A DNA stretch of 64,000 bases. It comes from Alphaproteobacteria bacterium. Lineage in GTDB: Bacteria > Pseudomonadota > Alphaproteobacteria > Bin95. Numbering within the stretch: the first letter of the stretch is position 1; every line of letters starts with the position of its first letter. The position numbers were made by a program, and so were the translations under genes. Shown here piece after piece: positions 3,001 to 30,417 of this stretch. Under the pieces are notes generated by a model. The model was not told the origin of the DNA, made no database searches, and saw nothing but the letters and a program-made list of their open reading frames with translations. The stretch spans positions 1-64,000 of the forward strand of contig CAXXWS020000001.1 of NCBI GenBank assembly GCA_963665325.3, read 5' to 3'.

Positions 3001-5986
3001 GGGCCGGGTGGTGGCGGGCGACGGCTACGCGCCGGGCGATCCGTCCGAGGTGACGCTGGCGCTGCTCGACGACGACGAGGCGGCGCTCGAGGTCACGGTC
3101 TCGGGCGGCGACGCGGTGACCGAGGGCGGCGACGCGGTGTTCACCTTCACGGCGAGCCCGGCCCCTGCATCGGACCTTGCGGTGAGCGTGACCGTGGCGG
3201 TCGAGGGCGACTACGGGATCGAGGGCGGCAAGCGGACCGTCACCATCCCGGCGGCGGGCAGCGCCACGCTGACGCTGGCGACGGCCAATGACGACGTTGA
3301 CGAGGCGGACGGCTCGATCACCCTGACGGTGGAGGACGGCGACGGCTACGCGGCGGGCGACCCGGCGTCGGGGACGGTCGCGGTGCGCGACGACGACGTG
3401 CCGGCGGTGAGCGTCGCGGCCGGGGATGCGGTGACCGAGGGCGGCGACGCGGCGTTCACGCTGACCGCGAGCCCGGCCCCGGCGGCGCCGCTGACCGTGA
3501 CGGTGACCGTGGCGGCCGCCGGCGACTACGGCGTGAGCGCGGGCACGCGGACGGTGACCGTCCCGATAACGGGCAGCGCCACGCTGACGCTGGCGACGGC
3601 GAACGACAAGGCGGACGAGGCCGACGGCTCGGTCACCCTGACGGTGGATGCGGGCAGCGGCTACACGGTGGGCGCGCCCGGCTCGGGCACGGTCGCGGTG
3701 CATGACGACGACGAGCCGGCGGTGAGCGTCGCGGCCGGGGATGCGGTGACCGAGGGCGGCGACGCGGTGTTCACCTTCACGGCGGATCCCGCCCCGGCAT
3801 CGGACCTGACCGTGACGGTAACGGTGGCGGCCGAGGGCGAGTACGGCGTGACCGCGGGCGAGCGGACCGTCACCGTCCCGGTGACGGGCAGCGCGGAGCT
3901 GACGCTGGCGACGACAAACGACGAGGCGGACGAGCCGGACGGCTCGGTCACCCTGACGGTGGATGCGGGCGACGGCTACACGGTGGGCGACCCGGCGTCG
4001 GGGACGGTCGCGGTGCGCGACGACGACGAGCCGCTGCCGCTGGTGATCTCGGTGGCCGACGCGACGGTGACGGAGGGCGACGGCGCCTCGCTGATGTGGT
4101 TCACGGTGCGCCTGTCGGAGCCTTCGGCGGAGACGGTGACGGCGCGGGCGGACACGCGCCCCTCGACCCCGGTATCGGCGAAGCCGCGGGAGGACTACTG
4201 GCCGGTGCGGTCCGGGCTGGTTCGGTTCAGGCCGGGCGAGACCGAGTGGCGCGTGGCGGTCTACATCGCCGACGACAATCACGACGAGGACGCGGAGACG
4301 TTCGAGCTGGTGCTGTCGGCCGCCGACGGCGCGCGGATCGGCGACGGGGTTGCGGTTGGGACGATCGTGAACGACGACCCGATGCCGGCGGCGTGGCTGG
4401 CGCGGTTCGGGCGCACGGTTGCGGAGCAGGCGCTCGACGGGATCGCGGGCCGGATGGCGGCGCCGCGCACGCCGGGCATGCAGGGCGCGATCGCCGGTCA
4501 GGCGCTCTCGTTCGGCGCACCCGCCAACGACAATGCGGCTGCGGGCCATGTTGCGGCCGGGTCCTCGACACTCGGCGTGACCGGGTCTCCGGCGCTGGCC
4601 GATGTCGCGCAGGCGTTCGGCGGGCACTCCGACCGATTCGGCGCGGGCGATTCCGGTCATGACGCGGCCGGCTTCGGTGCCGGCCCCGGCTCGTTGTCCG
4701 GGGCGGGCTTCTCGCAATCGCGGACCATGACGGCCCGCGACGCGCTGCTGGGCAGCAGTTTCTCGCTGACCGGCGCGGCGGACGGCTCGGGCGGCAGCAT
4801 GGCGTTCTGGGGCCGGGCGGCGCAGGGCGGCTTCGACGGCCGCGAGGGGACGTTCTCGCTCGACGGCACGGTCACCACCGGCATGTTGGGCGCGGACTAT
4901 GCGCGCGGCAAGTGGCTGGTGGGGCTGGCGCTTGCGCAGAGCGCGGGCGAGGGCGACTACCGCGATACCGATGCCGATCCCCGTCCCGACAGCCAGACCT
5001 GTCCCGCGATTGACGGACAGGAGATGCCGGAGTGGTGCAACGAGGCCGTGCGCGCGGGCGACGGCAGTGTGGAGGCGTCGCTGACGGCGGCGATCCCCTA
5101 TGCGGCGTTGCAGGCGTCGGAGCGCCTCAAGCTCTGGGGCGCGGCGGGTTACGGCACGGGCGAAGTGACGCTCAAGACCGCGCTCGGCGGCAGCTACAAG
5201 TCCGACACCACCTGGAGCATGGCGGCGGCGGGGCTCAGGGGCGACCTGCTGGCGCCCCCCGCTGAGGGCAGCGGTCCCGCCCTGGCGGTGACCTCGGACG
5301 CGCTGTGGACGCGGAGCTCGTCGGAGAAGACCCGCGACCTCGCGGCGTCGGAGTCCGACGCGACCCGGCTCAGGCTCGGGCTGGAGGGCAGCTACCGCAT
5401 GGCGCTGGAGGGCGGCGGTCATCTGACGCCGAAGCTGGAGGTCGGCGCGCGCCATGACGGCGGCGACGCGGAGACCGGCTTCGGGGTCGAGCTCGGCGGC
5501 GGCATCGCCTGGGTCGATCCGGGCCTCGGGCTGTCGCTCGACGTCTCGGGCCGCACGCTGATCGCGCACGGCAACGACGACCTGAAGGACCGGGGCTATG
5601 CGGCGTCGCTCGCTTTCGATCCGGACCCGGCGACGCGGCGGGGTCCGTCGCTGAGCCTGCGCCAGGAGTTCGGCGGGCAGGCCAATGGCGGACTGGATGC
5701 GCTGTTCCAGCCGGCGACGCTGGAGGACCGCACGGGCGGCGAGGCGACGAGCCGCTGGGCGATGGAGGCGGCCTACGGCTTCCCGGCCTTCGGCGGGCGC
5801 TGGACCGGCAGCCCGCATGTCGGATTGGGGCTGGCGGCGGCTGCGCGCGACTACAGCGTCGGCTGGCGGCTCGCGCCGGAGACCAACGCGCCCGACCTCT
5901 CCTTCGGGGTGAAGGCGAGTCGTCGGGAGACCGATACGGACGCGCCGGAGCATACGGTCGGGTTCGAGGTCCGCGCCCGCTGGTGA
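2..5986 (+). CDS. Large surface adhesin/autotransporter: signal peptide, N-terminal lectin-like module, Calx-beta/Ig-like repeats, C-terminal beta-barrel
   Basis: 1994-aa ORF with signal-like LLALPLLAGLPTGAQA. Repeated VTEGxxAxFT...DDD Calx-beta-like units. C-terminal barrel motifs (LRLGLEGS, RHDGGDAETGFG) and terminal W. The true start may be ATG at 11. Confidence 0.85.
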   Translation: MTAMSAFAWLRRRGRPSSPPESLSSARTAAGIRHATRRLRHGLRPVLASALLALPLLAGLPTGAQAQVACSTANADGSYDVPFDWALKPSGLAADSKFRLLFATSTVRTATATDIATYNTYVQTRAKAGHSAISDSCGNLFKVVASTSAVDARVNTDTESTDTAALIYWLNGAKVADSYTDFYDGSWDSRAHKNESGGTTSFLVVATGSNQDGTKSSTPLGAPSVNTTSLSSGSPISGAGASTNTNNFRFLALSPIFTVGTKPVVSISAGTSPVTEGTAASFTLSVTPAPSAPLAVTVIVTDTGDFVDAADEGVKTVTIPAGAATHAFTVATDNDTTDEANGFVTVSLISDAGYTKGTSGTATVAVSDDDATLVSLVATSDVTFTEETPSDTAAVTVRLARRLYAGEKLAVPFEVTGRGIALHEQVNPSYTLSVSGNGATGTLLTSATTYVRFTGHDTDIVQEATVTLTPTNNDDGDTEPGSVTIGILDLFSGDWTQSFTTVGGGGAPGPDTSVRLVYADNDGTFEDLILRDLPGPRIHLDVQASPDVTGSGRDWTLEEGADITLRISNLTETLHTQDLTVNYNVKGAYAHVPDGHGGTRPVTLPANTRSVQVTLPTEATTDDETDVSLSVRLLAADVPGTYTTNFQPLNFTVTDGSDGGTGVITPFVTVERWWPGFADPRDEGEHLPFVIRSNPAAQVPFPVWLKVEETAGDCVAAGQERVHTVRFTPGTELRVLRVPTVDDDVDEPDCEVRVSLVKDTAGTVPTVIDIALTGGRGGYIINPEVVSTPYIDETTPENSVPVGRGRGTATGTVFDNDPGSFDRGGQIGHSESDAAVDPALVAEVRVRAAETHHGQAHVDRWRRVLVAFGVETYEGLSPTTAAEAAANAKKYSSPLWPRIATALAALEAGPVVPVRPVVTIAADAERVGEGGAVTFTLTAAPAPVRDLAVHVVADEEMGAGDDLVGSGHIATVTIPAGESSATWTVTAMSDEVERADGTMTGRVVAGDGYAPGDPSEVTLALLDDDEAALEVTVSGGDAVTEGGDAVFTFTASPAPASDLAVSVTVAVEGDYGIEGGKRTVTIPAAGSATLTLATANDDVDEADGSITLTVEDGDGYAAGDPASGTVAVRDDDVPAVSVAAGDAVTEGGDAAFTLTASPAPAAPLTVTVTVAAAGDYGVSAGTRTVTVPITGSATLTLATANDKADEADGSVTLTVDAGSGYTVGAPGSGTVAVHDDDEPAVSVAAGDAVTEGGDAVFTFTADPAPASDLTVTVTVAAEGEYGVTAGERTVTVPVTGSAELTLATTNDEADEPDGSVTLTVDAGDGYTVGDPASGTVAVRDDDEPLPLVISVADATVTEGDGASLMWFTVRLSEPSAETVTARADTRPSTPVSAKPREDYWPVRSGLVRFRPGETEWRVAVYIADDNHDEDAETFELVLSAADGARIGDGVAVGTIVNDDPMPAAWLARFGRTVAEQALDGIAGRMAAPRTPGMQGAIAGQALSFGAPANDNAAAGHVAAGSSTLGVTGSPALADVAQAFGGHSDRFGAGDSGHDAAGFGAGPGSLSGAGFSQSRTMTARDALLGSSFSLTGAADGSGGSMAFWGRAAQGGFDGREGTFSLDGTVTTGMLGADYARGKWLVGLALAQSAGEGDYRDTDADPRPDSQTCPAIDGQEMPEWCNEAVRAGDGSVEASLTAAIPYAALQASERLKLWGAAGYGTGEVTLKTALGGSYKSDTTWSMAAAGLRGDLLAPPAEGSGPALAVTSDALWTRSSSEKTRDLAASESDATRLRLGLEGSYRMALEGGGHLTPKLEVGARHDGGDAETGFGVELGGGIAWVDPGLGLSLDVSGRTLIAHGNDDLKDRGYAASLAFDPDPATRRGPSLSLRQEFGGQANGGLDALFQPATLEDRTGGEATSRWAMEAAYGFPAFGGRWTGSPHVGLGLAAAARDYSVGWRLAPETNAPDLSFGVKASRRETDTDAPEHTVGFEVRARW
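3092..4030 (+). repeat. Three tandem ~315-bp (105-aa) intragenic repeats
   Basis: GA(C/T)GCGGTGACCGAGGGCGGCGACGCG recurs at 3110, 3425 and 3740. Boundaries are approximate. Confidence 0.9.
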
Positions 5987-6564
5987 GCGCGGCGCGCGCG
6001 TTGACCATGGCGGGATCCGGCCGGAAGCTGCCCGAGGACGGCGGGGTGTGGGCGTGGCAGGTGCTGCGGGACCGGGAGGACTACCGCGAGGCGTGGGCGG
6101 CCCGTGCGGGTTGTGCCGCCGCGCCCGATCTCGAGCCGGCGCCCTTTCCGGTCCGCGTCCAGTCGGCGGCCGATCTCGATGCGGCGCGCTGGGGCCTGCT
6201 CGCCTGGGAGGACCCGGAGGCGGTGGACGGGCCGGGCTCCGCGTTCTGGTCGGACGCTCCGATGCTGGTCTGCGCGCTCGGCGAGGGCGAGCCGGCGCTT
6301 GTCGACCTGCTCGAGGAGGCCGGGTCCACGGTGAGCGGGCTGCGGCTCGCGGGCGGGGCGCTGATCCTGAAGATCGAGCGCGGTCCCGATGCGGTGCAGC
6401 TGCGGCTGGCCGATGCGGCGGCGTTCCCCGGGGGCGGCGGCATCGAGCTGCGGCACGGCATTGCAGGTCTGCCGGCGACGGCGGCGCGGGAGCTGGAGCT
6501 GTGGGCGCTTGCCGGCGAGGCGGCTCCCCCTCCCGGGGGCGATATCGGGGGGCGGGGCACGTGA
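5983..6564 (+). CDS. FseA-like conjugation activator, N-terminal/middle part (DUF6499-like)
   Basis: WAWQVLRDREDYREAW and WGLLAWEDP motifs resemble DUF6499/FseA. Lies upstream of an rdfS-like gene. Alternative ATG start at 6007. Confidence 0.65.
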   Translation: MSAARALTMAGSGRKLPEDGGVWAWQVLRDREDYREAWAARAGCAAAPDLEPAPFPVRVQSAADLDAARWGLLAWEDPEAVDGPGSAFWSDAPMLVCALGEGEPALVDLLEEAGSTVSGLRLAGGALILKIERGPDAVQLRLADAAAFPGGGGIELRHGIAGLPATAARELELWALAGEAAPPPGGDIGGRGT

Positions 6565-6769
6565 GCTCCTGATTGCGCTGAACGGACGGCGGGCGAAGAG
6601 GGACGCCCGCGCCATCGCCGTCGAGCTTTACGGCGCGAAGCTGGCGGCGGAGTGGGAGACCGACGGCTGGCTGCGTTCGCGCACGCGGCGTCAGCTGCGC
6701 AAGGCGAAGCGGTTCGTGGAAGAGCGGCGGGGCTGGGACTACCGCGCGATGGCGGCGCGGCCGGGCTGA
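6563..6769 (+). CDS. DUF2285-like HTH domain (C-terminal part of the FseA-like protein), in the +1 frame
   Basis: ELLIALNG...RAIAVELYG...EW..DGWLRSRTRR...DYRAM fits the DUF2285 pattern. No convincing start codon of its own, so the start coordinate is approximate. Confidence 0.6.
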   Translation, partial: ELLIALNGRRAKRDARAIAVELYGAKLAAEWETDGWLRSRTRRQLRKAKRFVEERRGWDYRAMAARPG

Positions 6770-7062
6770 GCCGCCGGGCGCCCGGACCGGGCGAAGCCGC
6801 CGATGTTCGCCGCTGCCGGGTGCGGGCCCCGGTGTGTGCGGCCGCGCCCCGGAGCCCGCTCTCCCATGCCGTGTCCGTCATCCGTCACCGTCATGGACGG
6901 GGCGCCGGATGCGCCTGCAGGTCGCCGGGGAGCGGCCCCGGCGCCTGACGGAGGCTGGCATCGTGTGCCGCAATATTCGCCCGGGTTGACGATCCCCGCG
7001 ATTGCGGCGGGCTGTGCCATCCGGCTGAACCGCGATCCGGTATTGCCGATGTTCCGTAATCC

Positions 7063-7090
7063 GGCTGACGGCTGACGGCTGACGGCTGAC
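7063..7090. repeat. Heptamer tandem repeat (GGCTGAC)x4
   Basis: Read directly from the sequence. Confidence 0.95.
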
Positions 7091-7337
7091 GGCCGTCCGC
7101 CGCACCCGCCGCCCGCGGGCCGGTGACGCGCAATCGCAACCGTCCCTCCACCGCCGGCGCCGGTCCCGCAAACGCCCTCCCGCCCGGTCTGCCGGATCGC
7201 ACCGTTCCGGCGCGGTCCGCCGCCCGATTCGCGATTTCGCCGCCGTGCTCCGGCCCGTGCCGTGGACGGCGTACGCGCCCGGCCGCGGCGATGTCGGCGC
7301 CTGGCGGCCCGTGGCGGTTCCTGGCGGCTCCTGCGGG

Positions 7338-7365
7338 GGGTCGTTTTCGACTCGCAAAACGACCC
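7338..7365. promoter_or_regulatory. Perfect 10-bp inverted repeat upstream of rdfS/tra (candidate operator or oriT hairpin)
   Basis: GGGTCGTTTT-N8-AAAACGACCC about 100 bp before the rdfS ATG. The repeat is seen; its function is inferred. Confidence 0.5.
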
Positions 7366-7463
7366 TCCCCCCGCGCCCGGTTCTTCGCTTCGATCGCCCG
7401 GCGGATGCGCCCGGAACGGCCCGGGCGGTCCTCGGACCGAGGCAAGGGAGAAGGGGGAACGGG

Positions 7464-7718
7464 ATGGCGAAGAAGACCAGGTATCTGAAGACCCGCAAGG
7501 CGGCGAAGCATCTCGGGATGTCGGTCCGCACGCTGGAGCGCTACCGGCTGTCGGGGGGCGGGCCGGTGTTCCACCGCTTCCGGAGCGGGGTGCGCTACCT
7601 GCGCGCGGACCTCGATTCGTGGGCGGCGACGCGGCGGCGCAATTCGACCTCGGACGACGGTCCGGGGGAGCGCCCCGGTCCGGGGAAGGATCCCGCACCG
7701 CCGGGGTCCGGGCGATGA
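7464..7718 (+). CDS. rdfS: RdfS-like recombination directionality factor/excisionase (HTH_17/AlpA-type)
   Basis: RYLKTRKAAKHLGMSVRTLERYR..GGGPVF....VRY...DLDSWA...STSD. Purine-rich RBS. ATGA overlap with the pilin gene. Confidence 0.75.
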   Translation: MAKKTRYLKTRKAAKHLGMSVRTLERYRLSGGGPVFHRFRSGVRYLRADLDSWAATRRRNSTSDDGPGERPGPGKDPAPPGSGR

Positions 7719-8029
7719 GGGGCGCAGGCGATGCCGGCGCCGCGCGCCTTGCCGCCGTCATGGCGCTCGCCGCGGCGGCGGTGCTGGCGGGACCGGATAT
7801 CGCGCTGGCGAGCACCGACACGACCTTCGGCGATCCGCTGGATACGGTCGAGGGGATCGTCGGCGGCACCGGCGGGCAGCTCGCGGCGGCGCTCGCCGTC
7901 GGCGCGGCCCTGGTCGGCTCGGTGCTGCGCTTCAACGCGATGCAGCTGATGGGCGCGGTCGGGGTCGGCATAGCGGCCGGCGCCGGCACCGGCATCGTGA
8001 CCGGCCTGGTCGGCACGGCGATCGTCTGA
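7715..8029 (+). CDS. traA: Conjugative pilin
   Basis: Small protein with a signal peptide and two hydrophobic segments, directly before traL. Confidence 0.75.
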   Translation: MRGAGDAGAARLAAVMALAAAAVLAGPDIALASTDTTFGDPLDTVEGIVGGTGGQLAAALAVGAALVGSVLRFNAMQLMGAVGVGIAAGAGTGIVTGLVGTAIV

Positions 8030-8322
8030 TGAACGACACCGCGCGCCACACCATCCCGCGCCGTCTCGACGACCCGGAGCGCTGGCTGTTCTGGACCGTC
8101 GACGAGGCGGCGGCGCTGATGGGCCCGGCGCTCCTCGGGCTTGCCGCCAACCAGTTCGTGCCGGGGCTGGTGGCCGGCGTCGGCGGCTGGCTGCTGCTCA
8201 GGCGCGTGAAGCGCGGCGGCGGGGCCAACATCGCGCGCTACGCGCTCTACTGGTTCCTGCCGGACTTCGTGCTGCGTCTTGAACGCACGCCGCCGAGCCA
8301 TCTGCGGCGCTTCGCCGGCTGA
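8029..8322 (+). CDS. traL: F-type T4SS TraL
   Basis: IPRRLDDPER.LFWTVDE and LYWFLP motifs. Confidence 0.92.
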   Translation: MNDTARHTIPRRLDDPERWLFWTVDEAAALMGPALLGLAANQFVPGLVAGVGGWLLLRRVKRGGGANIARYALYWFLPDFVLRLERTPPSHLRRFAG

Positions 8323-8344
8323 GGCGCGGAGCGGGGACGGGGCC

Positions 8345-8917
8345 ATGAACCGCGCTTTCATGGAGACCGGCATCCGGCGCGCCCGCGATATCCGGGTGGC
8401 GCTGGCCGGGCTGCTGGCGCTGTCGATGACCGCGAACCTGGCGCTGACCGTGGGCTTCGCCGGGCGCGAGACGGCGACCGTGCTGGTGCCGGCGGCGGCG
8501 GGGCCTTCCTGGGCGGTGGGCGGCGGCGGCGCCGGCGAGGGCCGCGCCGGCGCGCGCTATCTGGAGGACATGGCGCGCACGGTGGCGGTGACGCTGCTGA
8601 CGCTGACGCCGGAGAACGCGGCCCATGTCCGCCTTGCGGCGGCGCGCCTGGCGCACCCGTCCGCGCGCGGCGCCATCGGCGCCTGGGTCGAGGCCGAGGC
8701 CGCGCGCATGGCCGGGCGCGACCTCGCGAGCGCGTTCTATCCCGACAGTATCGAGGCCGACCCGGCGCGGCTCGGCGTCGAGGTCGCGGGCGAGCTGGTG
8801 ACCTGGATCGGGCGCGAGGAGGCCTCGCGCGAGGACCGGCGCTACCGGCTCGCGTTCCGCATCGACGCCGGGCGCATCGGCCTGTTGCGCTTCGAACAGA
8901 TGGAGACCGGAAAATGA
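8345..8917 (+). CDS. traE: F-type T4SS TraE
   Basis: N-terminal TM segment, TVLVP, YLEDMA, LTLTPEN; expected position. Confidence 0.88.
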   Translation: MNRAFMETGIRRARDIRVALAGLLALSMTANLALTVGFAGRETATVLVPAAAGPSWAVGGGGAGEGRAGARYLEDMARTVAVTLLTLTPENAAHVRLAAARLAHPSARGAIGAWVEAEAARMAGRDLASAFYPDSIEADPARLGVEVAGELVTWIGREEASREDRRYRLAFRIDAGRIGLLRFEQMETGK

Positions 8918-9714
8918 CATTCATCGACCGATTGCGGCCGCTTGCGGTCCTGATTGCGATACCCCTTCTTTGCATGGGCGGGCTCGCGGCGTCCGCCCCG
9001 GCGGCGGCGATGCAGATCCTGGAGGCGGCCGACCACGCCGAGCTCGCCGCCGAAATCTCCGCGAGGGAGGTCAGCCGGATCGCGCTTGCACGCGACCGGA
9101 TCGCGCGGGTGGTGCGCTCGCCGGACGGCTTCGCGGCCGAGCACGACGCCGCCTCGGGCGACCTCTATCTCAGGCCCGCGGACGCGGCGAACCCGGCCGC
9201 GGCCCACGCCCCGGTCACGCTGTTCATCGGCACCGAGCGGGGCTTCACCTACCGGCTGACGCTGACGCCGGCCGAGCGGGGATCGGCGCAGATCCTGATC
9301 CGCAACCCCGGGGCCATGCCGGGCGCGGCGGAGGGCGTCGATGGCGCCGGCCCGGCATTGGCGGGCGATCCGCGGATCGCGGCGCTGGTCCGCCTGGTCC
9401 GCGCGGTGGCGCGGCGCGAGCCGCTGCCGGGGTATGCCATCCATGCCGGGGCCATCCATGCCGGGACCATGCCGGCCGGGCTCAGGCTCATCGAGACCTG
9501 GCGGGGTCCGCGTTACCGGGCGCTGGTGCTGGAAACGGGGCGCCTCCCCTCCGCCGGCACGCCGGATGCGGCGGGCCTCGCCGGGACCATCGGAGCGCTT
9601 GCGGGCGCCGGGCGCGTCGCGGCGCTGTGGCTGGCGGCGCCGGGCACCGGCCCCTCCGGCGGGCGGCTCGCGGTGGCGGTGACGGAAGGCGCCGCGACCG
9701 GAGAGCCGCGATGA
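8914..9714 (+). CDS. traK: F-type T4SS TraK
   Basis: Signal peptide, SRIAL..DRI, GDLYLRP, LFIGTERGFTY. Confidence 0.88.
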   Translation: MTFIDRLRPLAVLIAIPLLCMGGLAASAPAAAMQILEAADHAELAAEISAREVSRIALARDRIARVVRSPDGFAAEHDAASGDLYLRPADAANPAAAHAPVTLFIGTERGFTYRLTLTPAERGSAQILIRNPGAMPGAAEGVDGAGPALAGDPRIAALVRLVRAVARREPLPGYAIHAGAIHAGTMPAGLRLIETWRGPRYRALVLETGRLPSAGTPDAAGLAGTIGALAGAGRVAALWLAAPGTGPSGGRLAVAVTEGAATGEPR

Positions 9715-11048
9715 ACGCGCAACGGGATGCCCGGGACGGCGCCGATCCCGGGACGGTGCGCCGGCGCCAGCTGCTGCTGTTCTCGGGCGTCGCGGCGCTC
9801 GTGCTGGTCGCGGTGGCGGCGTGGCTCGGCATGGGCGGCGGCAAGGCCCCGGCGCCGCGCAGCGGCATCGAGGCCGGGATCGCCGGACCGGACACGGCCG
9901 AGAAGGTGTGGACGCGGCGCTCCGAGGCCCGGCTCGGCGGGATCGAGACCAAGCTGCGCGAGATGGAGCGGGAAGCCCGCTGGCTCGCCGCCGACAACGA
10001 CCGGCTGCGCGCGAAGCTGGAGACCGGCGCCGCCGATGCGCGCACCGTCATCGACCGCCAGGCGGCGATGATCGGCGAGCTGGAACGCCGCCTTCAGCCG
10101 CCCGGGCAGACGGGCAATGGCCCGGGCAATGCGCCGGGTGGAGACGGGTATTTCCGGGTGCCGGCGACGGCGCCCTCGACCGGCGGCCACGGACAGACGC
10201 AGCCCGTCGCGCCCCCGGCTCGGGGGCCGGGGCAGGCGGCGCGCATGATCGAGACCTTCGAGCTGACGGACAGCCCGCGGTCCTCGGCGCACGATCCCCG
10301 GAACGGGGTCCGGGGCAGGCCCCGCAGCGGCCCGGAACTGGTCGCCGATGCGGTGGCGAAGCCGGTCTCGGCCTGGCTGCCGGCGGGCGCGCATGCCGAG
10401 GCCGTGGTACTCGCGGGCGTCGACGCCTCGGCCGGCATCTCCTCGCAGGGCGATCCCCGCCCGGTGCTGATGCGCATCACGGGTCCCGCCTGGACGGCGG
10501 CCGAGGATGGCATGGCCATGCAGGTCGACATCGACGGCTGCACCGTCACGGGCGCGGCCCATGGCGACCTTTCGTCCGAGAAGGTCTACGTCCGTTTCCG
10601 CACCATGACCTGTGCCGGGCCGCGGCCGGGCACGGTGGTCGAGACGCCGGTGGCGGGGTTCGTCGCGGGCTCGGGCAAGACCGGGGTGCGCGGCCCGGTG
10701 GTGAGCCGCGAGGGGGCGCTGGTCGAGAAGGCCTTCCTCGCCGGCACGATCTCCGGCGTCGGCCAGGGCGTGGCCCAGGCGTTCCAGCCGCAGGCGGTGG
10801 CGGCCGGCGGGGGCGCCGCGGTCGCCAACACCGCGCTCGGCGACATCGGCCGCGCCGGTCTCGGCGCCGGGGCGTCGTCGGCCGGGCAGAAGGTCGCCGA
10901 CTACATGATCCGGCGCGCCGAGCAGTACCAGCCGGTGATCCAGCTCCAGGCCGGCACGAAGGTGACGCTGGTGTTCCTCGAAGGCGCGCGCATCGACGGG
11001 CGCGCCGTGCAACCCCGACAGACGCAAACCTCCCGGGGAGGGAAATGA
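9711..11048 (+). CDS. traB: F-type T4SS TraB (VirB10-like)
   Basis: TM plus coiled coil, GVDASAG, GDLSSEKVYVR, GVRGPVVSREG, RAEQYQPVI. Confidence 0.92.
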   Translation: MNAQRDARDGADPGTVRRRQLLLFSGVAALVLVAVAAWLGMGGGKAPAPRSGIEAGIAGPDTAEKVWTRRSEARLGGIETKLREMEREARWLAADNDRLRAKLETGAADARTVIDRQAAMIGELERRLQPPGQTGNGPGNAPGGDGYFRVPATAPSTGGHGQTQPVAPPARGPGQAARMIETFELTDSPRSSAHDPRNGVRGRPRSGPELVADAVAKPVSAWLPAGAHAEAVVLAGVDASAGISSQGDPRPVLMRITGPAWTAAEDGMAMQVDIDGCTVTGAAHGDLSSEKVYVRFRTMTCAGPRPGTVVETPVAGFVAGSGKTGVRGPVVSREGALVEKAFLAGTISGVGQGVAQAFQPQAVAAGGGAAVANTALGDIGRAGLGAGASSAGQKVADYMIRRAEQYQPVIQLQAGTKVTLVFLEGARIDGRAVQPRQTQTSRGGK

Positions 11049-25149: not shown

Positions 25150-25282
25150 CAATCCCTGCGCGTCAGCCGTTCGTTCTCCTCGGCGATGCGCAGATGGGTG
25201 TAGGACCCGCTCTTCGTGGACCACTCGATCGTATCGCGGTTGTCGAACGGTTCGACACGGTGAAACGCCCGCCAGTCGCCGT
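25150..25282 (-). pseudogene. Possible transposase C-terminal remnant (ISKra4-like)
   Basis: Minus strand reads NGDWRAF...HLRIAEENERL*. GGGTGTAGG at ~25196 resembles an IS end. Weak, from recollection of the family only. Confidence 0.3.
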
Positions 25283-25366
25283 TGAGTGTGCTCTCGGTAT
25301 CTGATGGCGGGATGGTCACGTTGTTCGATGGTTTTCAGGCGTCGGGCCGGGCGTGACGGCGGGGGT

Positions 25367-25453
25367 GTCGGACGGCCGTCGGCGCGTCAAGCCGCTTCGC
25401 GGCTCCTGCGCTGCGCTCCGGCCCTTCGGGTGACCCGCCGCCGTCCCTCCGAC
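25367..25453. repeat. Long imperfect inverted repeat with inner hairpins (cruciform)
   Basis: GTCGGACGGCCGTCGGCGCGTCA pairs with TGACCCGCCGCCGTCCCTCCGAC at 19/23 positions and encloses GCCGC-TTC-GCGGC. Confidence 0.7.
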
Positions 25454-25528
25454 GGAGTGCATCCATGGCCGTAAGCAAGCTTCCGGCCACGGGCCGGCCG
25501 CTTTACGCAGTGTGACAATGGGAGCGGT

Positions 25529-25590
25529 GTTACCCGTTACCGTTACCCTCTCTCCCTAGGGGTTCGAGGCGGTAACGGTTTTCGGTAACG
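25529..25590. repeat. GTTACC x3 and inverted GGTAAC x2 around the helicase stop codon (ori-like iterons)
   Basis: GTTACC at 25529, 25536 and 25542; GGTAAC at 25571 and 25584. Confidence 0.8.
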
Positions 25591-26554
25591 TGTCCCTGCG
25601 GTCGTTGCCGTTGAGGGCGGCGAGGCGGTATCCGCCTTCGGATGCGCGCTCGACGCGTCCTTCGCGGACGAGCCTGTGCAGCGCCTCGGCGACGGTTGCG
25701 GGCCGGGTTGCCGCGCGCTCGCGGATCCGGCGCTGGGAGAGCGGCGCGTCGGCGTCGGCGAGGGCCTGCAGGATGCGCCGTTCGGGGGTATCCGGCTCCG
25801 GCGCCTGGTCTTCCGGCGTCTCGCGCAACCGCAGGGCGGGGCGCTCGTCGTCGTCGGCGAGTTCGATCTCGAGGTCTTCGAGGCCAGGGGCGTCGCGATG
25901 CTCGACGGTCATGAGGATCTGGCGGTCTCGCCGGCGCAGGTACAGATTCGAATCGCCCCAGGCGTGAAGTTCGCTGCTGCCGCGCAGCGCCTGCCCGGGC
26001 CGGGAGCCGCCGCTCTTTCGTGCGTGATGGACGAGGAGGACGGCGGTTTCGAAGCGGCGCTGTATGTCGCGCAGGAAGCCCAGCATGGGGGCGACCTCGG
26101 CGACGGTATTTTCGTCGACGCCGTGCAGGCGCACGAGGGGGTCGAGGACGACGAGGCGGGGTGAGACGCGCTCCACCGTCTCGACCAGGCGCTGGCGATC
26201 GGCGCGATGGTCGAGACGCAGCGTGGGCACGTCGATGACGGCGATGTCGAGGGTCTCGAACGCGGTGCCTGCCGCCTTTGCGATGCCCTGGAGGCGTGCG
26301 CGCACGATATGGCCGGCGTCCTCGGCGGCGAACAGCAGCACGGGGCCGCTTGCGGCGGGACGGAAGTGGCGCAGGCAGGGGACGCCGGCGGCGACCGCGA
26401 CGGCGATGTCGAGTGCGAGGAAGGATTTGCCGCACTTGGGCTCGCCGCCGACGATGCCGACGCCCTGCTCGGACCACAACGCCTCGACCATCCAGCGGCG
26501 CGCCTGGGGGCGCTCTTCGAGCTCCGCCGGCGCCCGTGTCGGGAAGCCCTTCAC
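25556..26554 (-). CDS. AAA_25/RSF1010 RepA-like SF4 helicase with C-terminal winged HTH
   Basis: Walker A GEPKCGKS, AAED, Walker B LVVLDP, LLVHHARK, LRGSS. GTG start overlaps the upstream stop. Confidence 0.82.
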   Translation of the reverse strand: MKGFPTRAPAELEERPQARRWMVEALWSEQGVGIVGGEPKCGKSFLALDIAVAVAAGVPCLRHFRPAASGPVLLFAAEDAGHIVRARLQGIAKAAGTAFETLDIAVIDVPTLRLDHRADRQRLVETVERVSPRLVVLDPLVRLHGVDENTVAEVAPMLGFLRDIQRRFETAVLLVHHARKSGGSRPGQALRGSSELHAWGDSNLYLRRRDRQILMTVEHRDAPGLEDLEIELADDDERPALRLRETPEDQAPEPDTPERRILQALADADAPLSQRRIRERAATRPATVAEALHRLVREGRVERASEGGYRLAALNGNDRRDTLPKTVTASNP

Positions 26555-27384
26555 CGCCGCGCCCTCCTCGGCTTGGCGGGTTCGCCCAGGGTCTCGATGA
26601 AGAGCTTCTCGTCGAGGACCTCGCGCTCCTTCTCGGCGGCGGCGGCGAGCAGGGCGTCGGCCATGACGGTGAGCGCCCGCGGGTTGCCGTCGGCATGGGC
26701 GACCAGGGTGTCCTTGAGGCCCGCGGTCATGAGGCCGGGATTGCCGGCCTGCTCGATCAGATGGTCGAGCAGGGCCGCGAGGTCGCCGGCCTCGGCCTTG
26801 GTCATGACCAGGCGCTGGCGGATGCGCGAGGCGATGGGCTGCAGATCGGGCTGGCGGAGCTTGTCGAGCAGGCGCGTGTCGCCGGCGAGGACGACCGAGA
26901 GGATGGCGCGCGAGTCGAAGTCGGTCGAAGCCAGCAGGCGGATCTCGGAGAACACCGAGGGCAGCAGCTCCTGGGCCTCGTCGACGAGCACGACGGGGCG
27001 CATGCGGGTATCGTCGACATGGGCGAGCCAGCGCTCGCGCAGGCTTTTGAAGCTGGCCCAGCGGTTGTTGTACATCAGGTCGACGCCGAACATCTCGCCG
27101 ATCTCGCGGTAGAAGTCGGACAGCCGGGAGGAGGGATGGGTGATGGCGGCGATGCTGAGCCCCTCGCAGCGGCCGAGACGGTCGGCGAGCAGGCGCAACG
27201 CCACACTCTTTCCGGCGCCGGGCTCGCCGGCGATCAAGGCGAAGCCGCCCTGGCGCACCAGGTGGCGCTCGATCCTGAGGCAGAAGCTGTCGACGGCAGG
27301 CGTCGCCATGAGACTGTCGACCGGCAGGTCGGTGGCGAAGGGGTTCCACTTGAGCCCGTAGAAGGTGAGCAGTTCCCGGTTCAT
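26551..27384 (-). CDS. ExeA/TnsC-like AAA+ ATPase (transposition helper)
   Basis: FYGLKWNPF, Walker A GEPGAGKS, Walker B VLVDEAQ, GNPRAL. Confidence 0.88.
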   Translation of the reverse strand: MNRELLTFYGLKWNPFATDLPVDSLMATPAVDSFCLRIERHLVRQGGFALIAGEPGAGKSVALRLLADRLGRCEGLSIAAITHPSSRLSDFYREIGEMFGVDLMYNNRWASFKSLRERWLAHVDDTRMRPVVLVDEAQELLPSVFSEIRLLASTDFDSRAILSVVLAGDTRLLDKLRQPDLQPIASRIRQRLVMTKAEAGDLAALLDHLIEQAGNPGLMTAGLKDTLVAHADGNPRALTVMADALLAAAAEKEREVLDEKLFIETLGEPAKPRRARR

Positions 27385-28856
27385 GGCGCATCTCCCCGAT
27401 CTTCGTCCTCGCCCGGACCGGGCGTCTTGTCATGGGGCAGCCAGGCCGGCGGCAGGCCGGTTGCGGCCTGGGCGTCGAGCATGCCCTTGAGCAGCGGCGG
27501 AAGTTCCCCCGTCCCCGCGCCGCCATTGCCATCGTTGCCGCCGGGGCCGGCGGGACGGCGCACGCCATCGGCGTTGCCGCGCTTGTCGAGGGGGTACAGC
27601 GTGCACAGGCGCTCGCCGCCTCGACCGTCGATCAGATCGACGCTGGCGAGGTTCCAGCGCGCGTAACGGATCCAGGCCTCGCGCAGGTGGCGCCACGGCT
27701 GTGGCACCTGGTAGCGGATGCCCTCGACCGAGACGGTGCCGTCCGAGCGCCTGAGCGTGCGCTTCCTGGTGATGCGGAAGGCCGCCTTGAGCTCGGCCGA
27801 GCCGGGGCAGGATCTCGACGCGTCGACGCTCCCGGCCAGGCGTTGATGCGGCGTCATGCCGAGCTCGCGGTGCTTGCGGCGGTGATAGTCCTGCTCCAGC
27901 CAGGCGATGGTGGCGTCGTTGAGCATCTTCAAGGTAAGCGCGTCGACGCCTTCGAGCTGAGCCATCAGGCGCGATTCGACCGTGCCCCAGAACGACTCGA
28001 TCTTGCCGTTCTGATGGGGGCTGTAAGCGAGCGTCGTGACCCCCGCGATGCCGAGCCGGTGCAACCCCTCCTCGACCTCGCCCGCGGTCATCGCCGCGCC
28101 GTTGTCGGTCAGCAGGGACCTCGGCAGACCGCGCTTCATGAAGGCCTGGCAAAGGCCGTGGACGAACACCTCGGCGGTCTCGGCGAGGTACCACTGAAGG
28201 TGGCAGCCGAGGCGCGAGTGGTCGTCGAGGAAGCCGAGCAGGATCGGCGTCTTCCACTCGCCCGAGGCGGTCAGCACGCGACGCTTGGCGCTGTGCATGT
28301 CGGCGTGCCACAGGGCGTGAGAGCGCGAGACCTCGTAGCTCAATACCTCGCGGGCTTCGACCGCCGGCCTGGCCTCGCTCTCATGCCACTTGCGCCGGCG
28401 CTTGCGTACCAGCCCGCGAGCCCGCATCGCCCGGGTCAGCGTCGCGTAGGACGGTATCGGGCCGAGCTCGGGATCGGCCTCGACCCGCGCGGCCAGATTC
28501 TCGTGATGAAGCTGCGCCGACCACGACGGATGCGCCCGGTACTGCTCGTGCAGCGCCTCGATCAGCGTCGGCGACATCGCGCGCGGGCGCCCGGCATCGG
28601 CGCGCGGGCGCCGCTTGAGCGCCCCCACCGGATCGTTGTCCGCCGCCCGCGCCTGGTAGTACCAGCGCTCGATCGTGGACACCGCGAAGCGCACCCGGCC
28701 CTTGCCGGACGGGTGATCCCACTCGCGTTCGGCAAGCCGCTCAAGCTCGGCGTGCAGCCGCCCCGCCGGCGGCGGCGAGGCCAGAAGCGGCCCGACCACC
28801 GCGAAGCGCAACCGCGCCCACCGGTCGCGACGCTCGCTCCCGTCGTTGCTGTTCAT
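27381..28856 (-). CDS. DDE transposase/integrase (rve core, IS481/Mu-like)
   Basis: N-terminal HTH (STIERWY), WHAD, FLDDHSR, LTDNG, QNGKIESFW, Mu-like C-terminus DGTVSVEGIRYQVP. Confidence 0.92.
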   Translation of the reverse strand: MNSNDGSERRDRWARLRFAVVGPLLASPPPAGRLHAELERLAEREWDHPSGKGRVRFAVSTIERWYYQARAADNDPVGALKRRPRADAGRPRAMSPTLIEALHEQYRAHPSWSAQLHHENLAARVEADPELGPIPSYATLTRAMRARGLVRKRRRKWHESEARPAVEAREVLSYEVSRSHALWHADMHSAKRRVLTASGEWKTPILLGFLDDHSRLGCHLQWYLAETAEVFVHGLCQAFMKRGLPRSLLTDNGAAMTAGEVEEGLHRLGIAGVTTLAYSPHQNGKIESFWGTVESRLMAQLEGVDALTLKMLNDATIAWLEQDYHRRKHRELGMTPHQRLAGSVDASRSCPGSAELKAAFRITRKRTLRRSDGTVSVEGIRYQVPQPWRHLREAWIRYARWNLASVDLIDGRGGERLCTLYPLDKRGNADGVRRPAGPGGNDGNGGAGTGELPPLLKGMLDAQAATGLPPAWLPHDKTPGPGEDEDRGDAP

Positions 28857-28904
28857 TCCGGCATCCCCCTCGCTGCTTCGTGGAGGTGCCGATGATGCGG
28901 TGCC

Positions 28905-29519
28905 CTATCCGTGCATCATAGAAACGCTTTCTGCGGGCGAAGCCGGACCTGCGCCGAGCGCGCAAAAGCCGGTCCACGGCATCAGCCAGACCAGGCTCCG
29001 CAGCAGCCGCGAGCGGAAGCCACGGCCCCGCATGATGCGCAGCAGCCGGCGCAGCGGCGCCTCTTCGGGCGGCGCCGCCAGCTCGCCCCGTCTCGCCTGC
29101 CACTCCCGGGTCAGCGGGAAGGCTTCCAGCCACCAGCGCCGCCAGCGCTTCAGCGTCGAGGCCGGAACCCCGCACCGCCGCGCGATCGTCTGCAACCGCG
29201 CGCCGCCGGCCACAGCCAGCGCACTCACCACAAGGAACAGCGCCCCGACGTAAAAGCGCCTGCCGAAGAAACGCACCGACGGCGGCTTCACGCGGCGTCG
29301 GCACACCGAACAGCACAGGCTGAAGCGCCGAACGTCGTTCCGAAGATTCGCCGCCAGACCGTGCGGCTTGCGCGGGTAGCTCGCGCTGTGAAGCGCGCCG
29401 CCGCAGCGCGGGCAACCCGCCGCCCGGCACGCCTCCGCCTCGGCCGCGTCGACCTGCTTCAGAAAATCCCAAACCCGGGCGTTGGAGAGATTGGAGTGCC
29501 GGAACAGCTTGTGCGACAT
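28905..29519 (-). CDS. Zn-finger/HTH transposon-associated protein (DUF6431-like)
   Basis: CPRCGG and CCSVCRRR Cys pairs, PPSVRFFGRR, HTH-like GVPASTLKRWRRWW. Confidence 0.7.
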   Translation of the reverse strand: MSHKLFRHSNLSNARVWDFLKQVDAAEAEACRAAGCPRCGGALHSASYPRKPHGLAANLRNDVRRFSLCCSVCRRRVKPPSVRFFGRRFYVGALFLVVSALAVAGGARLQTIARRCGVPASTLKRWRRWWLEAFPLTREWQARRGELAAPPEEAPLRRLLRIMRGRGFRSRLLRSLVWLMPWTGFCALGAGPASPAESVSMMHG

Positions 29520-29666
29520 TGGGGCCGTCTCAGGTTGATGTCACTGTCACCGAGACAAGCCCTCCGGCGGCCTTCTTGCAAGATCGCCGGGGGGCACCCA
29601 ATCCAAAACCTCGATTAATCCGAGCCGATCAGCCCCTGATCGCCGCTGAAAGCCTGCGCCCGCTCA

Positions 29667-30417
29667 GGTCGGACTGGAGGGGACGTGGCGCGGTCTCGGA
29701 ACGGCGGGCGGCGGTTCGTTCCTGCCTGCCCTGGAGATCGGCCTGCGCCATGACGGCGGCGACGCGGAGACGGGGCTCGGCGCTGACATCGGCGCCGGTC
29801 TGGTCTGGACGGACCCGTCGCGCGGGCTTTCGGCCGAGCTCAACGCGCGGGGCCTGCTGACCCATGAGGCGAGCGGGTTCCGGGAGCGGGGCTTCGCGGG
29901 CTCGATCGTCTGGGACCCGGAACCGCGCTCGGACCGCGGTCCGTCGTTGACCCTCTCGCAAACGGTGGGCGCGGCTGCCAAGGGCGGGGTCGAGGCGCTG
30001 CTCAGGCCGGAAACGGCGCGGACGTTGGACGCAGCGAATGACAATGAGGACAGCGACCAGCGCAGCCGCCGCCTTGAGGCGAAGCTCGACTATGGATGGC
30101 CTGTATTCGCCGGCCGCTTCACGGCGGCGCCGGAGATCGGGTTCAGGCTGTCGGAGTCGGACCGCGAGTATATCCATGGTTGGCGCCTGGCGGAGGCAAA
30201 ACGCTCCGGGCTGGCGTTCGGGCTGGATGTGGAGGCGGCGCGGCGCGAGCCGATGACGGATGATGCAGCGCCGGAGCACCGGCTCGGGTTCGGGCTCGGC
30301 TGGCGCCGCGACGACTCCACGTTCGAGTTCCGTCTCGAAGGCTCGCGTCTGCAGCCGGTCAACGACAACCGGGCGGCCGAACACCGCATCGGCCTCTCGC
30401 TGAGCGCGCGATGGTGA
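29667..30417 (+). pseudogene. 5'-truncated autotransporter beta-barrel remnant, paralogous to the C-terminus of 2..5986
   Basis: GLEGTW...LEIGLRHDGGDAETGLG...RGPSLTLSQ...EHRIGLSLSARW*. Begins abruptly at the candidate transposon end. Confidence 0.85.

Follow-up and report, generated by a model that had tools for sequence, protein, structure and literature searches.

The analysed stretch of DNA (the window) comprised 64 000 nucleotides of contig CAXXWS020000001.1 (assembly GCA_963665325.3) from an alphaproteobacterium. Positions 25283–29666 are occupied by exactly one transposon of 4384 bp, the four genes of which are co-directional on the minus strand and overlap or abut. Genes were delimited by GC3 frame analysis and by listing of open reading frames. 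The features are as follows.

25283–29666, minus strand: whole transposon (4384 bp).
29652–29666: gene-proximal terminus (left in gene sense), the plus strand reading ...GCCTGCGCCCGCTCA.
28905–29519, minus strand: orf1, 204 aa, cysteine-cluster (Zn-ribbon-like) plus HTH protein.
27381–28856, minus strand: orf2, 491 aa, DDE (rve) transposase.
26551–27384, minus strand: orf3, 277 aa, AAA_22 ATPase (MuB/TniB-like partner, the 'gspA' of Tn6049).
25556–26560, minus strand: orf4, 334 aa from the GTG (a database protein of 350 aa starts 16 codons upstream), RepA/DnaB-like AAA_25 ATPase plus C-terminal winged helix.
25530–25589: long imperfect palindrome of hexamer repeats (GTTACC x2–3 ... CTAG ... 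GGTAAC x3) spanning the orf4 stop codon.
25362–25476, minus strand: conserved structured motif consisting of a variable long stem closed by GUCA/UGAC, an invariant CCCGAAGGG hairpin, AGCGNAGCGNAGGAG, a variable hairpin and then CUUGAC.
25283–25297: helicase-proximal terminus (right in gene sense), the plus strand reading TGAGTGTGCTCTCGG.

The ends were established by a blastn search of the genome with 25283–29666, which returned 24 copies: 21 at 100% identity over 4384 bp, two with one gap and one interrupted by another IS. All copies begin TGAGTGTGCTCTCGG and end GCCTGCGCCCGCTCA; relatives begin TGAGCRNGCGC in gene sense. Target duplications were found for 20 of the 24 copies (ten of 5 bp, eight of 4 bp and two of 6 bp). 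An uninterrupted paralogous site (C4:66278–66307; C1 and C4 are sequences of the genome) shows a precise insertion with a CCGT duplication. The right flank is the C-terminal part of an autotransporter-like barrel ORF, so that a neighbouring gene is cut. The observation made in the preliminary description, namely an operon of these four genes followed by repeats and bounded by TG...CA termini, was thus confirmed, and its coordinates are the exact ends of the element.

Domains were assigned with Pfam. Orf1 (GC3 of 0.85) matched HTH_23 (3.4e-6), and CxxC-type cysteine clusters were read from its sequence. It is 40% identical to the 181-aa first gene of Tn6049 and 45% identical to that of the PsJN element; the same position in more distant relatives is annotated DUF6431, while Pfam DUF6431 itself was not reported for orf1 at E <= 0.01. 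The TniQ-like role (regulator or target selector) proposed for orf1 in the preliminary description remains conjecture. Orf2 matched rve (4e-6), rve_3 and HTH_32, and D186, D251 and E287 are invariant in 23 DDE sequences. It is 51% identical over 468 aa (E = 3e-151) to the Tn6049 transposase and falls in a 100/100-supported clade with the loci L091/L092 in the DDE tree. Against the NCBIfam IS481 model it scored 123.9 bits, below the cut-off of 224 (a type B transposase, see below, scored 213.3); IS481 insertion sequences have a single gene and this element has four, so it was not assigned to that family. Orf3 overlaps orf2 by 4 nt and matched AAA_22 (5e-20) and PHROG 296 'DNA transposition protein' (1.4e-23); it is 52% identical over 278 aa to the Tn6049 ATPase and gave a weak PDB match to MuB (8xvb, E = 0.056). 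Its Walker A and B motifs were read from the sequence.

Orf4 matched AAA_25 (4e-36) and winged-helix families of the IclR/MarR/GntR type. Its only significant PDB sequence match was RSF1010 RepA (1g8y, 2.4e-8), with Walker A, the catalytic Glu, Walker B, the HHxxK motif and RGSS aligned. The AlphaFold model has a pLDDT of 91, and the top Foldseek hits were DnaB (4esv), RadA (8rxc) and RepA (1g8y/1nlf). K45, E80, D140 and R193 are invariant in 66 homologues of 35–85% identity, and H178/H179 are conserved in 90% or more of them; the sequence therefore has the RecA-like core with the Walker A Lys, catalytic Glu, Walker B Asp, H3 His and Arg finger of SF4 RepA/DnaB-type helicases. Orf4 also matched the helicase parts of phage primase-helicase families. 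AAA_25 proteins are RecA-fold ATPases and not all of them need be helicases, so that helicase is used here for a function predicted from sequence and modelled fold.

Linkage of orf4 to the transposon, which had been named beforehand as a condition that could refute the proposal, was examined in other genomes. The gene lies inside the mobile unit in all 24 copies. All 80 of 80 loci fetched with orf4 (16 assemblies, the titles of which name Alphaproteobacteria, Chloroflexota, Acidimicrobiales and Acidobacteria) have an AAA_22 gene directly upstream, and 79 of these 80 also have a DDE gene, although many of the 80 are copies within a few genomes and are not independent. The same order holds in the relatives labelled G283 (orf4 45–48% identical) and in G438, G538 and G601 (39–43%), where DDE and AAA_22 have diverged to 29–35%. 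In total, every orf4 relative of at least 40% identity that could be seen in context sits directly after a transposon AAA_22 gene (84 of 84 loci, at least four divergent lineages), whereas none of nine loci with relatives of 34% identity or less shows the linkage. Orf4 relatives are very numerous in metagenomes (more than 7600 cluster representatives at E <= 1e-5 and 489 clusters at 50% identity with E <= 1e-30), almost all annotated only as 'AAA family ATPase'.

The module has been exchanged between two backbones. Type A and type B backbones share only 32% (DDE) and 26% (ATPase) identity, yet orf4 is 78% identical; DNA similarity begins at the orf4 start and stops about 70 nt before the end. 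Type B orf4 nests inside type A orf4, and the DDE tree needs at least two gains. In sister lineages the helicase gene is followed by a primase gene: the G538/G438 lineage has a Zn_ribbon_DnaG plus Toprim_2 gene directly after it (PHROG 'DNA primase', 3e-32), and a type A subclade has a DUF3991 plus Toprim_2 gene there. Of the 80 loci, 64 carry the structured motif, 12 carry the Toprim gene, none carries both, two (L040 and L063) carry neither and two are too short.

The 115-nt motif is 86% identical between type A and type B elements. In an alignment of 46 distinct sequences 93.1% of cells were paired against 77.5% in shuffles, and the covariation score of 0.388 (against 0.125) was reached by none of 500 shuffles. 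No Rfam match was found up to E = 1 in 25200–29750 on either strand. The fold is only modestly more stable on the sense strand (32 of 45), so RNA and single-stranded DNA cannot be told apart. The motif was also found between a RecD2-like helicase gene and an SSB gene in a tyrosine-recombinase element, and beside IS30, IS110, IS21 and IS66 transposase genes and a relaxase gene; its role may therefore be unrelated to the helicase. Contigs in other runs match only 25362–25476. As the most conserved part of the noncoding DNA is shared with unrelated mobile elements, this DNA, regarded as ori-like in the preliminary description, is not a private origin. The separate palindrome is kept in type A and type B relatives with GTTACC/GGTAAC replaced by GTTCCC/GGGAAC, and in one copy another IS has inserted at its central CTAG.

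The interpretation given in the preliminary description, an element that initiates replication of itself or of its circular intermediate, or unwinds targets, was only partly supported. The helicase-like gene is within the element, consistently linked and of the replicative RepA/DnaB type, and the primase genes of sister lineages point to a role in DNA replication. The architecture is, however, not without precedent, since orf1–orf3 are the Tn6049 backbone named in 2009–2010 (PMC2864759; PMC4739549). In the strongest form of the proposal a circle, excised or copied out, would replicate autonomously like a small plasmid with orf4 as initiator-helicase and the hexamers as iterons. A winged-helix helicase homologue next to inverted hexamer arrays resembles such an arrangement, primases occur in sister lineages, and the transposase is IS481/IS3-like by NCBIfam, families which form circles. 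Nevertheless, no end-to-end joint was listed in four runs and no head-to-tail junction was present in 248 loci or the genome (weak evidence, because only assembled contigs were available and contigs drop rare forms), no AT-rich unwinding stretch is visible in 25283–25555 (GC 0.70), and no copy is assembled as a separate small replicon. Plasmid-like replication is not shown and was considered unlikely.

Two further readings were considered. Firstly, the AAA_25–wHTH protein could be a regulator, a target selector or an immunity/remodelling ATPase of the transpososome (a TnsE/TniQ/ClpX-like role), or a selfish passenger spreading by recombination between elements. The backbone works without it, the module moves between backbones whose transposase and ATPase are only about 30% identical, which fits an autonomous cassette, the winged helix suggests sequence-specific DNA binding, and insertions are clustered (nine of 14 C1 copies lie in 1.98–2.34 Mb). 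On the other hand, in elements of 4.4–5.2 kb with no other cargo the gene has been kept through divergence to 40% identity with its catalytic residues invariant, its partners in sister lineages are primases, which a regulator or target selector would not need, and its structural neighbours are replicative helicases; this reading is doubtful. Secondly, the helicase with or without the Toprim gene could be anti-phage or anti-plasmid defence cargo, as transposons often carry defence genes (stated also in a paper on Tn7 cargo, PMC8649781) and Toprim plus helicase pairs occur in defence systems such as Gabija. Orf4 matched no PADLOC defence model, the Toprim proteins matched only the DnaG-like parts of DRT models, the G538 protein has a CHC2 DnaG zinc ribbon and matches phage 'DNA primase' families, and OLD-type nuclease features were not seen; this reading is very unlikely.

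The preferred explanation (probability of approximately 0.58) is that the element is a compact, currently active transposon of the little-studied Tn6049 family which has gained a small replication module, a RepA/DnaB-type hexameric-helicase homologue fused to a winged helix together with downstream cis DNA, and that the helicase serves the replication step of transposition. In this view the DDE enzyme and its ATPase would carry out Mu-like strand transfer or IS3/IS481-like copy-out, either of which leaves a fork-like intermediate that must be replicated. The element's own helicase would be loaded there, possibly positioned by its winged helix on the hexamer repeats about 250–310 bp from one end. 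Priming would come from an element-encoded primase in some lineages; in most, including this one, it is only a guess that the 115-nt motif recruits a host priming enzyme. The replication step would thereby be less dependent on host restart proteins. The gene content, mobility, linkage, module exchange and the alternative of primase or motif were established by the analysis, whereas helicase activity (including ring hexamer formation and 5'–3' unwinding), the loading site, the priming role of the motif and the type of transposition were inferred. Against this explanation, the helicase is dispensable for this kind of transposition, since Tn6049 and other relatives (Cupriavidus, Paraburkholderia, Geobacillus, Acidithiobacillus) have a 65–71-aa ORF or nothing in fourth place and Tn6049 still reached 12 copies; two copies in relatives lack both motif and primase gene; and the element has no resolvase, which classical replicative transposons usually have.

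A wider reading is tentative: a widespread family of compact DDE transposons would bring its own entry to the replisome, a self-loading RepA/DnaB-like helicase plus either a primase or a portable 115-nt priming or loading signal, so that the replication step no longer depends on host restart proteins. This would explain the bursts (24 or more identical copies) and the spread across phyla, and the signal would be shared as a module by the many unrelated mobile elements in or beside which the motif was found. The hand-over from transpososome to replisome is well understood mainly for phage Mu, where host PriA, DnaC and DnaB are needed; a natural family of 4.4–5.2 kb transposons encoding its own helicase, and in some lineages a primase, would be a minimal system for studying it, and could also explain how some transposons cross phylum boundaries and amplify explosively. 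The covarying motif is a separate lead to a new cis-acting signal or RNA.

The element was compared with four known systems. The insertion sequence excision enhancer IEE, which acts on copy-out-paste-in IS elements, is likewise a replication-type protein functionally tied to DDE insertion sequences that need a replication step (bioRxiv 10.1101/2023.06.07.543989). IEE is encoded outside the IS. It is a PrimPol plus a different helicase class. With the RSF1010/IncQ replication set (RepA helicase, RepB' primase, ssi sites) the element shares the match of orf4 to RepA, most of which is covered by the fold match (TM 0.70–0.75 by target), and the pairing of a predicted helicase with a primase or a hairpin element recalls, by analogy only, RepA, RepB' and ssiA/ssiB. 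It has no RepC-type initiator and no iteron-plus-AT-rich origin, orf4 carries its own winged helix and sits in a transposon rather than a plasmid, and identity is only about 20% in the structural alignments. With Mu, Tn552, Tn5053/Tn402 and Tn7 it shares an rve-fold DDE enzyme with an AAA+ partner, TG...CA termini and 4–5 bp duplications, and the type B transposase has a Mu-transpos_C domain; it has no TnsA, TniQ or resolvase, and its transposase is nearer by sequence to IS481/IS3 models. Those systems rely on host helicase loading (PriA/DnaB for Mu), whereas this family encodes a predicted helicase and in some lineages a primase. The closest system is Tn6049 of Cupriavidus metallidurans CH34 (12 copies; PMC2864759), also present on Pseudomonas aeruginosa pHS87a, which has the same first three genes in the same order, TG...CA ends (here TGAG...CTCA), short imperfect inverted repeats and a 4-bp duplication (PMC4739549). 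Its ends differ in sequence (TGTGCATAAGCA against TGAGCGGGCGC), and it is 3.5 kb in length with an unrelated 71-aa ORF where the present element has the 334-aa AAA_25–wHTH gene plus 273 bp of structured noncoding DNA. The backbone is therefore known, and the helicase module is the new part.

The window is GC-rich (about 70%), so that raw listings of open reading frames are full of false frames. Third-position GC content and a sliding frame plot single out four genes on the minus strand. Neighbouring genes overlap by 4 and 10 nt, so they form one operon. The features are as follows.

25283–29666, the whole element (4,384 bp), with its genes on the minus strand.
29519–28905, minus strand, orf1 (204 aa), with a Pfam HTH_23 match and cysteine clusters CxxxxCxxC and CCxxC read from the sequence.
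28856–27381, minus strand, orf2 (491 aa), with matches to rve, rve_3 and HTH_32.
27384–26551, minus strand, orf3 (277 aa), with a match to AAA_22.
26560–25556, minus strand, orf4 (334 aa from a GTG; a database protein of 350 aa starts 16 codons earlier), with a match to AAA_25 and a C-terminal winged helix (IclR, MarR and GntR models).
25362–25476, minus strand, a 115-nt structured block.
29668–30417, plus strand, the right flank, encoding the C-terminal part of an autotransporter-like β-barrel ending ...SLSARW.

Residues D186, D251 and E287 of orf2 are invariant in 23 transposases of this superfamily. Sequences 73–79% identical to the right flank occur at about 14 other places in the genome, three of them within 110–610 bp of other copies of the element. 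A scan for promoters and terminators gave no promoter-like sites and three terminator-like sites against 1.7 expected, and was uninformative.

The observation made in the preliminary description holds: the region is a mobile element, and the ends proposed there are exactly its ends. The genome to which the window belongs (five contigs, 5.58 Mb) contains 24 copies of 25283–29666, of which 21 are identical over 4,384 bp, two differ by one gap and one is split by a 2,070 bp insertion. All copies begin TGAGTGTGCTCTCGG and end GCCTGCGCCCGCTCA. The ends were defined by this comparison of copies, since a repeat finder detected no terminal inverted repeats beyond TGAG/CTCA. A direct target duplication is present in 20 of the 24 copies (ten of 5 bp, eight of 4 bp and two of 6 bp), and two more have a 5 bp duplication with one mismatch. 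The copy in the window and the copy at 930514–934897 on contig C4 have none, but their flanks match crosswise: the left flank of the window copy and the right flank of the C4 copy share CCGT, whereas the left flank of the C4 copy and the right flank of the window copy share GGTCG. An uninterrupted paralogue of this target at C4:65993–66692 (empty site at C4:66278–66307) joins the left flank of the window copy (100% identical) to the right flank of the C4 copy (98%) with a single CCGT. The insertion was thus precise and the two copies later recombined. These crosswise flanks on different contigs fit a cointegrate history, but they fit ordinary homologous recombination between 4.4 kb repeats equally well.

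The 2,070 bp insertion lies at 2290873–2292942 on contig C1, inside the element copy at C1:2290596–2297053. It is an insertion sequence with a 620-aa transposase reading frame and ends CCCAAGTTTAAC...GTTAAACTTGGG, is present in 12 full copies in the genome, and is inserted with a CTAG duplication exactly at the centre of the hexamer palindrome that follows orf4. Nine of the 14 copies of the element on C1 lie between 1.98 and 2.34 Mb, eight of them in one orientation, and part of this region (about 1.98–2.10 Mb) has an unusually strong positive GC skew (0.08–0.15 over 100 kb). A bias with respect to replication direction was looked for, but the GC skew of this genome gives no clean origin or terminus; 19 of the 24 copies agree in orientation with the sign of the local skew, but seven of these lie in one odd region and no conclusion was drawn.

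The preliminary description had suggested that the extra helicase and origin-like repeats allow the element to initiate replication of itself or of a circular intermediate, or to unwind targets; this interpretation is supported only in part. A circle junction and raised coverage, which had been proposed there as tests, were sought in assembled contigs (Logan) of four of the 24 sequencing runs found. No joint of 29666 to 25283 is listed. In one run (X1) contigs inside the element have a depth of 583–668, the right-flank contig has 24.7 and the left-flank contigs 100–112, the left flank being duplicated in the genome. This ratio equals the assembled copy number, but contig depth is not a copy number and contigs drop rare forms, so that it is no evidence either way. 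No head-to-tail junction pattern was found in 248 loci or in the genome. Near-identical sequence (45–90% of sampled words) occurs in runs labelled with five organisms and in sponge metagenomes (62–68%), and RNA libraries from sponge, coral and marine metagenomes hold 6–10% of the words. Among the RNA libraries, contigs were compared for one sponge run (X17) only; these are 90–95% alike over much of the element, which does not show transcription.

By sequence, the only significant match of orf4 among solved structures is the RSF1010 RepA helicase (E = 2.4e-8), with Walker A, the catalytic Glu, Walker B, the HHxxK motif and RGSS all aligned. In an alignment of 66 homologues of 35–85% identity K45, E80, D140 and R193 are invariant. 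The AlphaFold model built from this alignment has a mean pLDDT of 91, and its best Foldseek matches are DnaB (4esv), RadA helicase (8rxc) and RepA (1g8y and 1nlf; TM 0.70–0.75 by target), followed by Rad51/Dmc1. PHROG matches are to the helicase parts of phage primase-helicases. A reading of orf4 as a defence gene was considered, but it matches no PADLOC model. The family is very large: more than 7,600 cluster representatives match at E ≤ 1e-5, the top 120 of which are all at least 72% identical, and there are 489 clusters at 50% identity with E ≤ 1e-30. The few names given are 'AAA family ATPase'. Close relatives are absent from the plasmid and phage collections searched: the best match in 72,556 plasmids is 30% identical, and the best in IMG/VR is 33% identical over most of the ATPase domain, with one 52-residue stretch reaching 48%.

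A scan of one genome per species returned 80 loci from 16 assemblies, the titles of which name Alphaproteobacteria or Rhodospirillaceae, Chloroflexota or Dehalococcoidia, Acidimicrobiales and Acidobacteria. In all 80 an AAA_22 gene lies directly upstream of the orf4 relative, and in 79 a DDE gene lies before that, the one exception being a contig that starts inside the ATPase gene. Of these loci, 49 were termed type A (orf1–orf3 63–91% identical to the window) and 31 type B. In type B the DDE is 31–34% and the ATPase 25–28% identical, the first gene is a different 214-aa protein, the DDE has a Mu-transpos_C domain and the ends read TGTTGTCTC...GAAACAACA. Both types are about 4.4 kb, multi-copy and flanked by 4–5 bp duplications. 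In even samples of 400 genomes closer relatives are rare: only one genome (G283) has one in the class sample and only three (G438, G538 and G601) in the phylum sample. In all four, orf4 relatives of 39–48% identity again follow DDE and AAA_22 genes, which have diverged to 29–35%. Nine loci with relatives of 34% identity or less show no such neighbours within the 1.5–16 kb fetched, and the same-genus genome in the sample has no match. Three sampled genomes with a type-A-like transposase (G089, G138 and the unpublished G240) have no orf4 match, but their contigs are under 3 kb.

Between the element in the window and type B elements, DNA similarity (76–78%) starts at the first codons of orf4 (element position about 3100) and runs to about 70 nt before the end, with a stretch of 86% in the noncoding tail. 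In the orf4 tree (FastTree) the type B sequences nest inside type A diversity (local supports 0.94–1.0), whereas in the transposase tree the two backbones are separated by long branches. In the latter tree, in which the label 'none' for loci L104–L106 means only 'not seen', the helicase-bearing type A elements form one 100/100 clade inside the clade of Tn6049 (the closest named transposon, compared below), and the marked branches force at least two gains or losses.

In the G538/G438 lineage the gene right after the helicase gene encodes a 309-aa protein with a DnaG CHC2 zinc ribbon (4.8e-12) and Toprim_2 (6e-10), which also matches phage 'DNA primase' families (3e-32). In a type A subclade, which comprises the elements of CAXXVO, one CBDEUP element and loci L038, L046, L047 and L048, drawn from six assemblies, the fifth gene encodes a 289-aa DUF3991+Toprim_2 protein; the element is then 5.19 kb and ends ...GCGCACGCTCA. 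At locus L076 an IS110-family element (8612–10214; DEDD_Tnp_IS110, Transposase_20) interrupts the Toprim gene of a five-gene type A element, of which the sister copies L084 and L085 are intact. Of the 80 loci, 64 carry a conserved structured motif after orf4, 12 carry the Toprim gene, none carries both, two carry neither (L040 and L063) and two are too short to tell; these loci are not independent, because many are copies within one genome.

The noncoding tail begins with a long imperfect palindrome built of hexamers (GTTACC...CTAG...GGTAAC ×3) across the orf4 stop codon. Relatives keep it with both arms changed together to GTTCCC/GGGAAC, and the periodic hexamers fit protein-binding repeats as well as a hairpin. 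The 115-nt block follows (25362–25476, read on the gene strand) and consists of a long stem of variable sequence closed by GUCA/UGAC, an invariant CCCGAAGGG hairpin, AGCGNAGCGNAGGAG, a variable hairpin and CUUGAC. A scan of metagenome contigs with the 16-base core gave at least 120 stretches, many of which are chance matches; together with the element loci it yielded 46 distinct sequences with the extended core. On their alignment 18 predicted pairs are formed in 93.1% of cells against 77.5% in shuffles, and 11 pairs show changes on both sides. The covariation score is 0.388 against 0.125 (reached by 0 of 500 shuffles) and 0.05–0.09 for slid partners. The outer stem, which MAFFT does not align, pairs far better with its own partner (mean −34.2 kcal/mol) than with the partners of other sequences (−23.3, s.d. 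5.8). The fold is more stable on the gene strand in 32 of 45 sequences, and Rfam has no match.

In the genome of the window the motif occurs only inside the 24 copies, whereas contigs from other runs match only 25362–25476 and then diverge. Outside these transposons (loci L111–L225 and L145:9164–9314) it lies next to IS30, IS110, IS21 (IstB) and IS66 (TnpB) genes and a relaxase gene. At L145 it is part of a different mobile-looking unit (1414–9996), in which two adjacent tyrosine recombinase genes and two unassigned ORFs are followed by a RecD2-like helicase gene (AAA_30, UvrD_C_2), the motif and then an SSB gene. The motif could be a portable priming or loading signal, a stable RNA or an insertion hot spot.

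Taken together, the analysis shows an active Tn6049-type transposon, the fourth gene of which is a conserved RepA/DnaB-class ATPase with a DNA-binding domain, stably and repeatedly associated with this transposon superfamily and accompanied either by a primase gene or by a structured cis element. Its mode of action, including helicase activity itself, is inferred. Most likely, the helicase would act at the replication step that follows strand transfer (Mu-like) or copy-out (IS3/IS481-like), perhaps positioned by its winged helix on the hexamer repeats, and the primase, or a host enzyme recruited by the motif, would supply primers. A strict requirement for the helicase is opposed by the fact that Tn6049 and others amplify without one. 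Autonomous plasmid-like replication is opposed by the lack of an AT-rich origin and of any junction in assembled data, although the latter is weak evidence.

In the literature searched, which did not extend to ISfinder, TnCentral or supplementary files that might list such elements, no description was found of a DDE+AAA+ transposon with a RepA/DnaB-like helicase, with or without a primase. No paper in this literature combined a RepA-like helicase with a transposon, none of those on DDE transposases with AAA+ ATPases mentioned a DnaB-like helicase, and none on AAA_25 with transposases concerned such an element, as judged from titles and abstracts. The one paper in it that mentions replicative transposition, transposon-encoded functions, primase and helicase concerns Tn7 cargo (PMC8649781), and its passages do not describe this arrangement. 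The structured motif is a separate, possibly new, feature.

The backbone, in contrast, belongs to a named family, for which no mechanistic study was found. The best annotated relatives of orf2 are 'IS481 family transposases' on Cupriavidus metallidurans CH34 replicons (50% identity), although the transposase does not reach the NCBIfam IS481 cut-off (123.9 against 224). orf3 matches the phage 'DNA transposition protein' family and, weakly, MuB. More distant relatives, on Cupriavidus necator pBB2, a Geobacillus plasmid and an Acidithiobacillus megaplasmid, have a DUF6431 protein, then DDE, then AAA ATPase, followed by a small ORF or nothing. On pMOL30 of C. metallidurans the transposase gene is flanked by a 181-aa 'transposase', a 277-aa AAA ATPase and a 71-aa hypothetical protein. 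This is Tn6049, which is 3.5 kb long, is present in 12 copies in CH34 and has an ATPase gene named gspA (PMC2864759), with 12 bp imperfect inverted repeats beginning TG and a 4 bp duplication (PMC4739549). Its first three genes are 40%, 51% and 52% identical to orf1–orf3, whereas the 71-aa ORF is unrelated to orf4.
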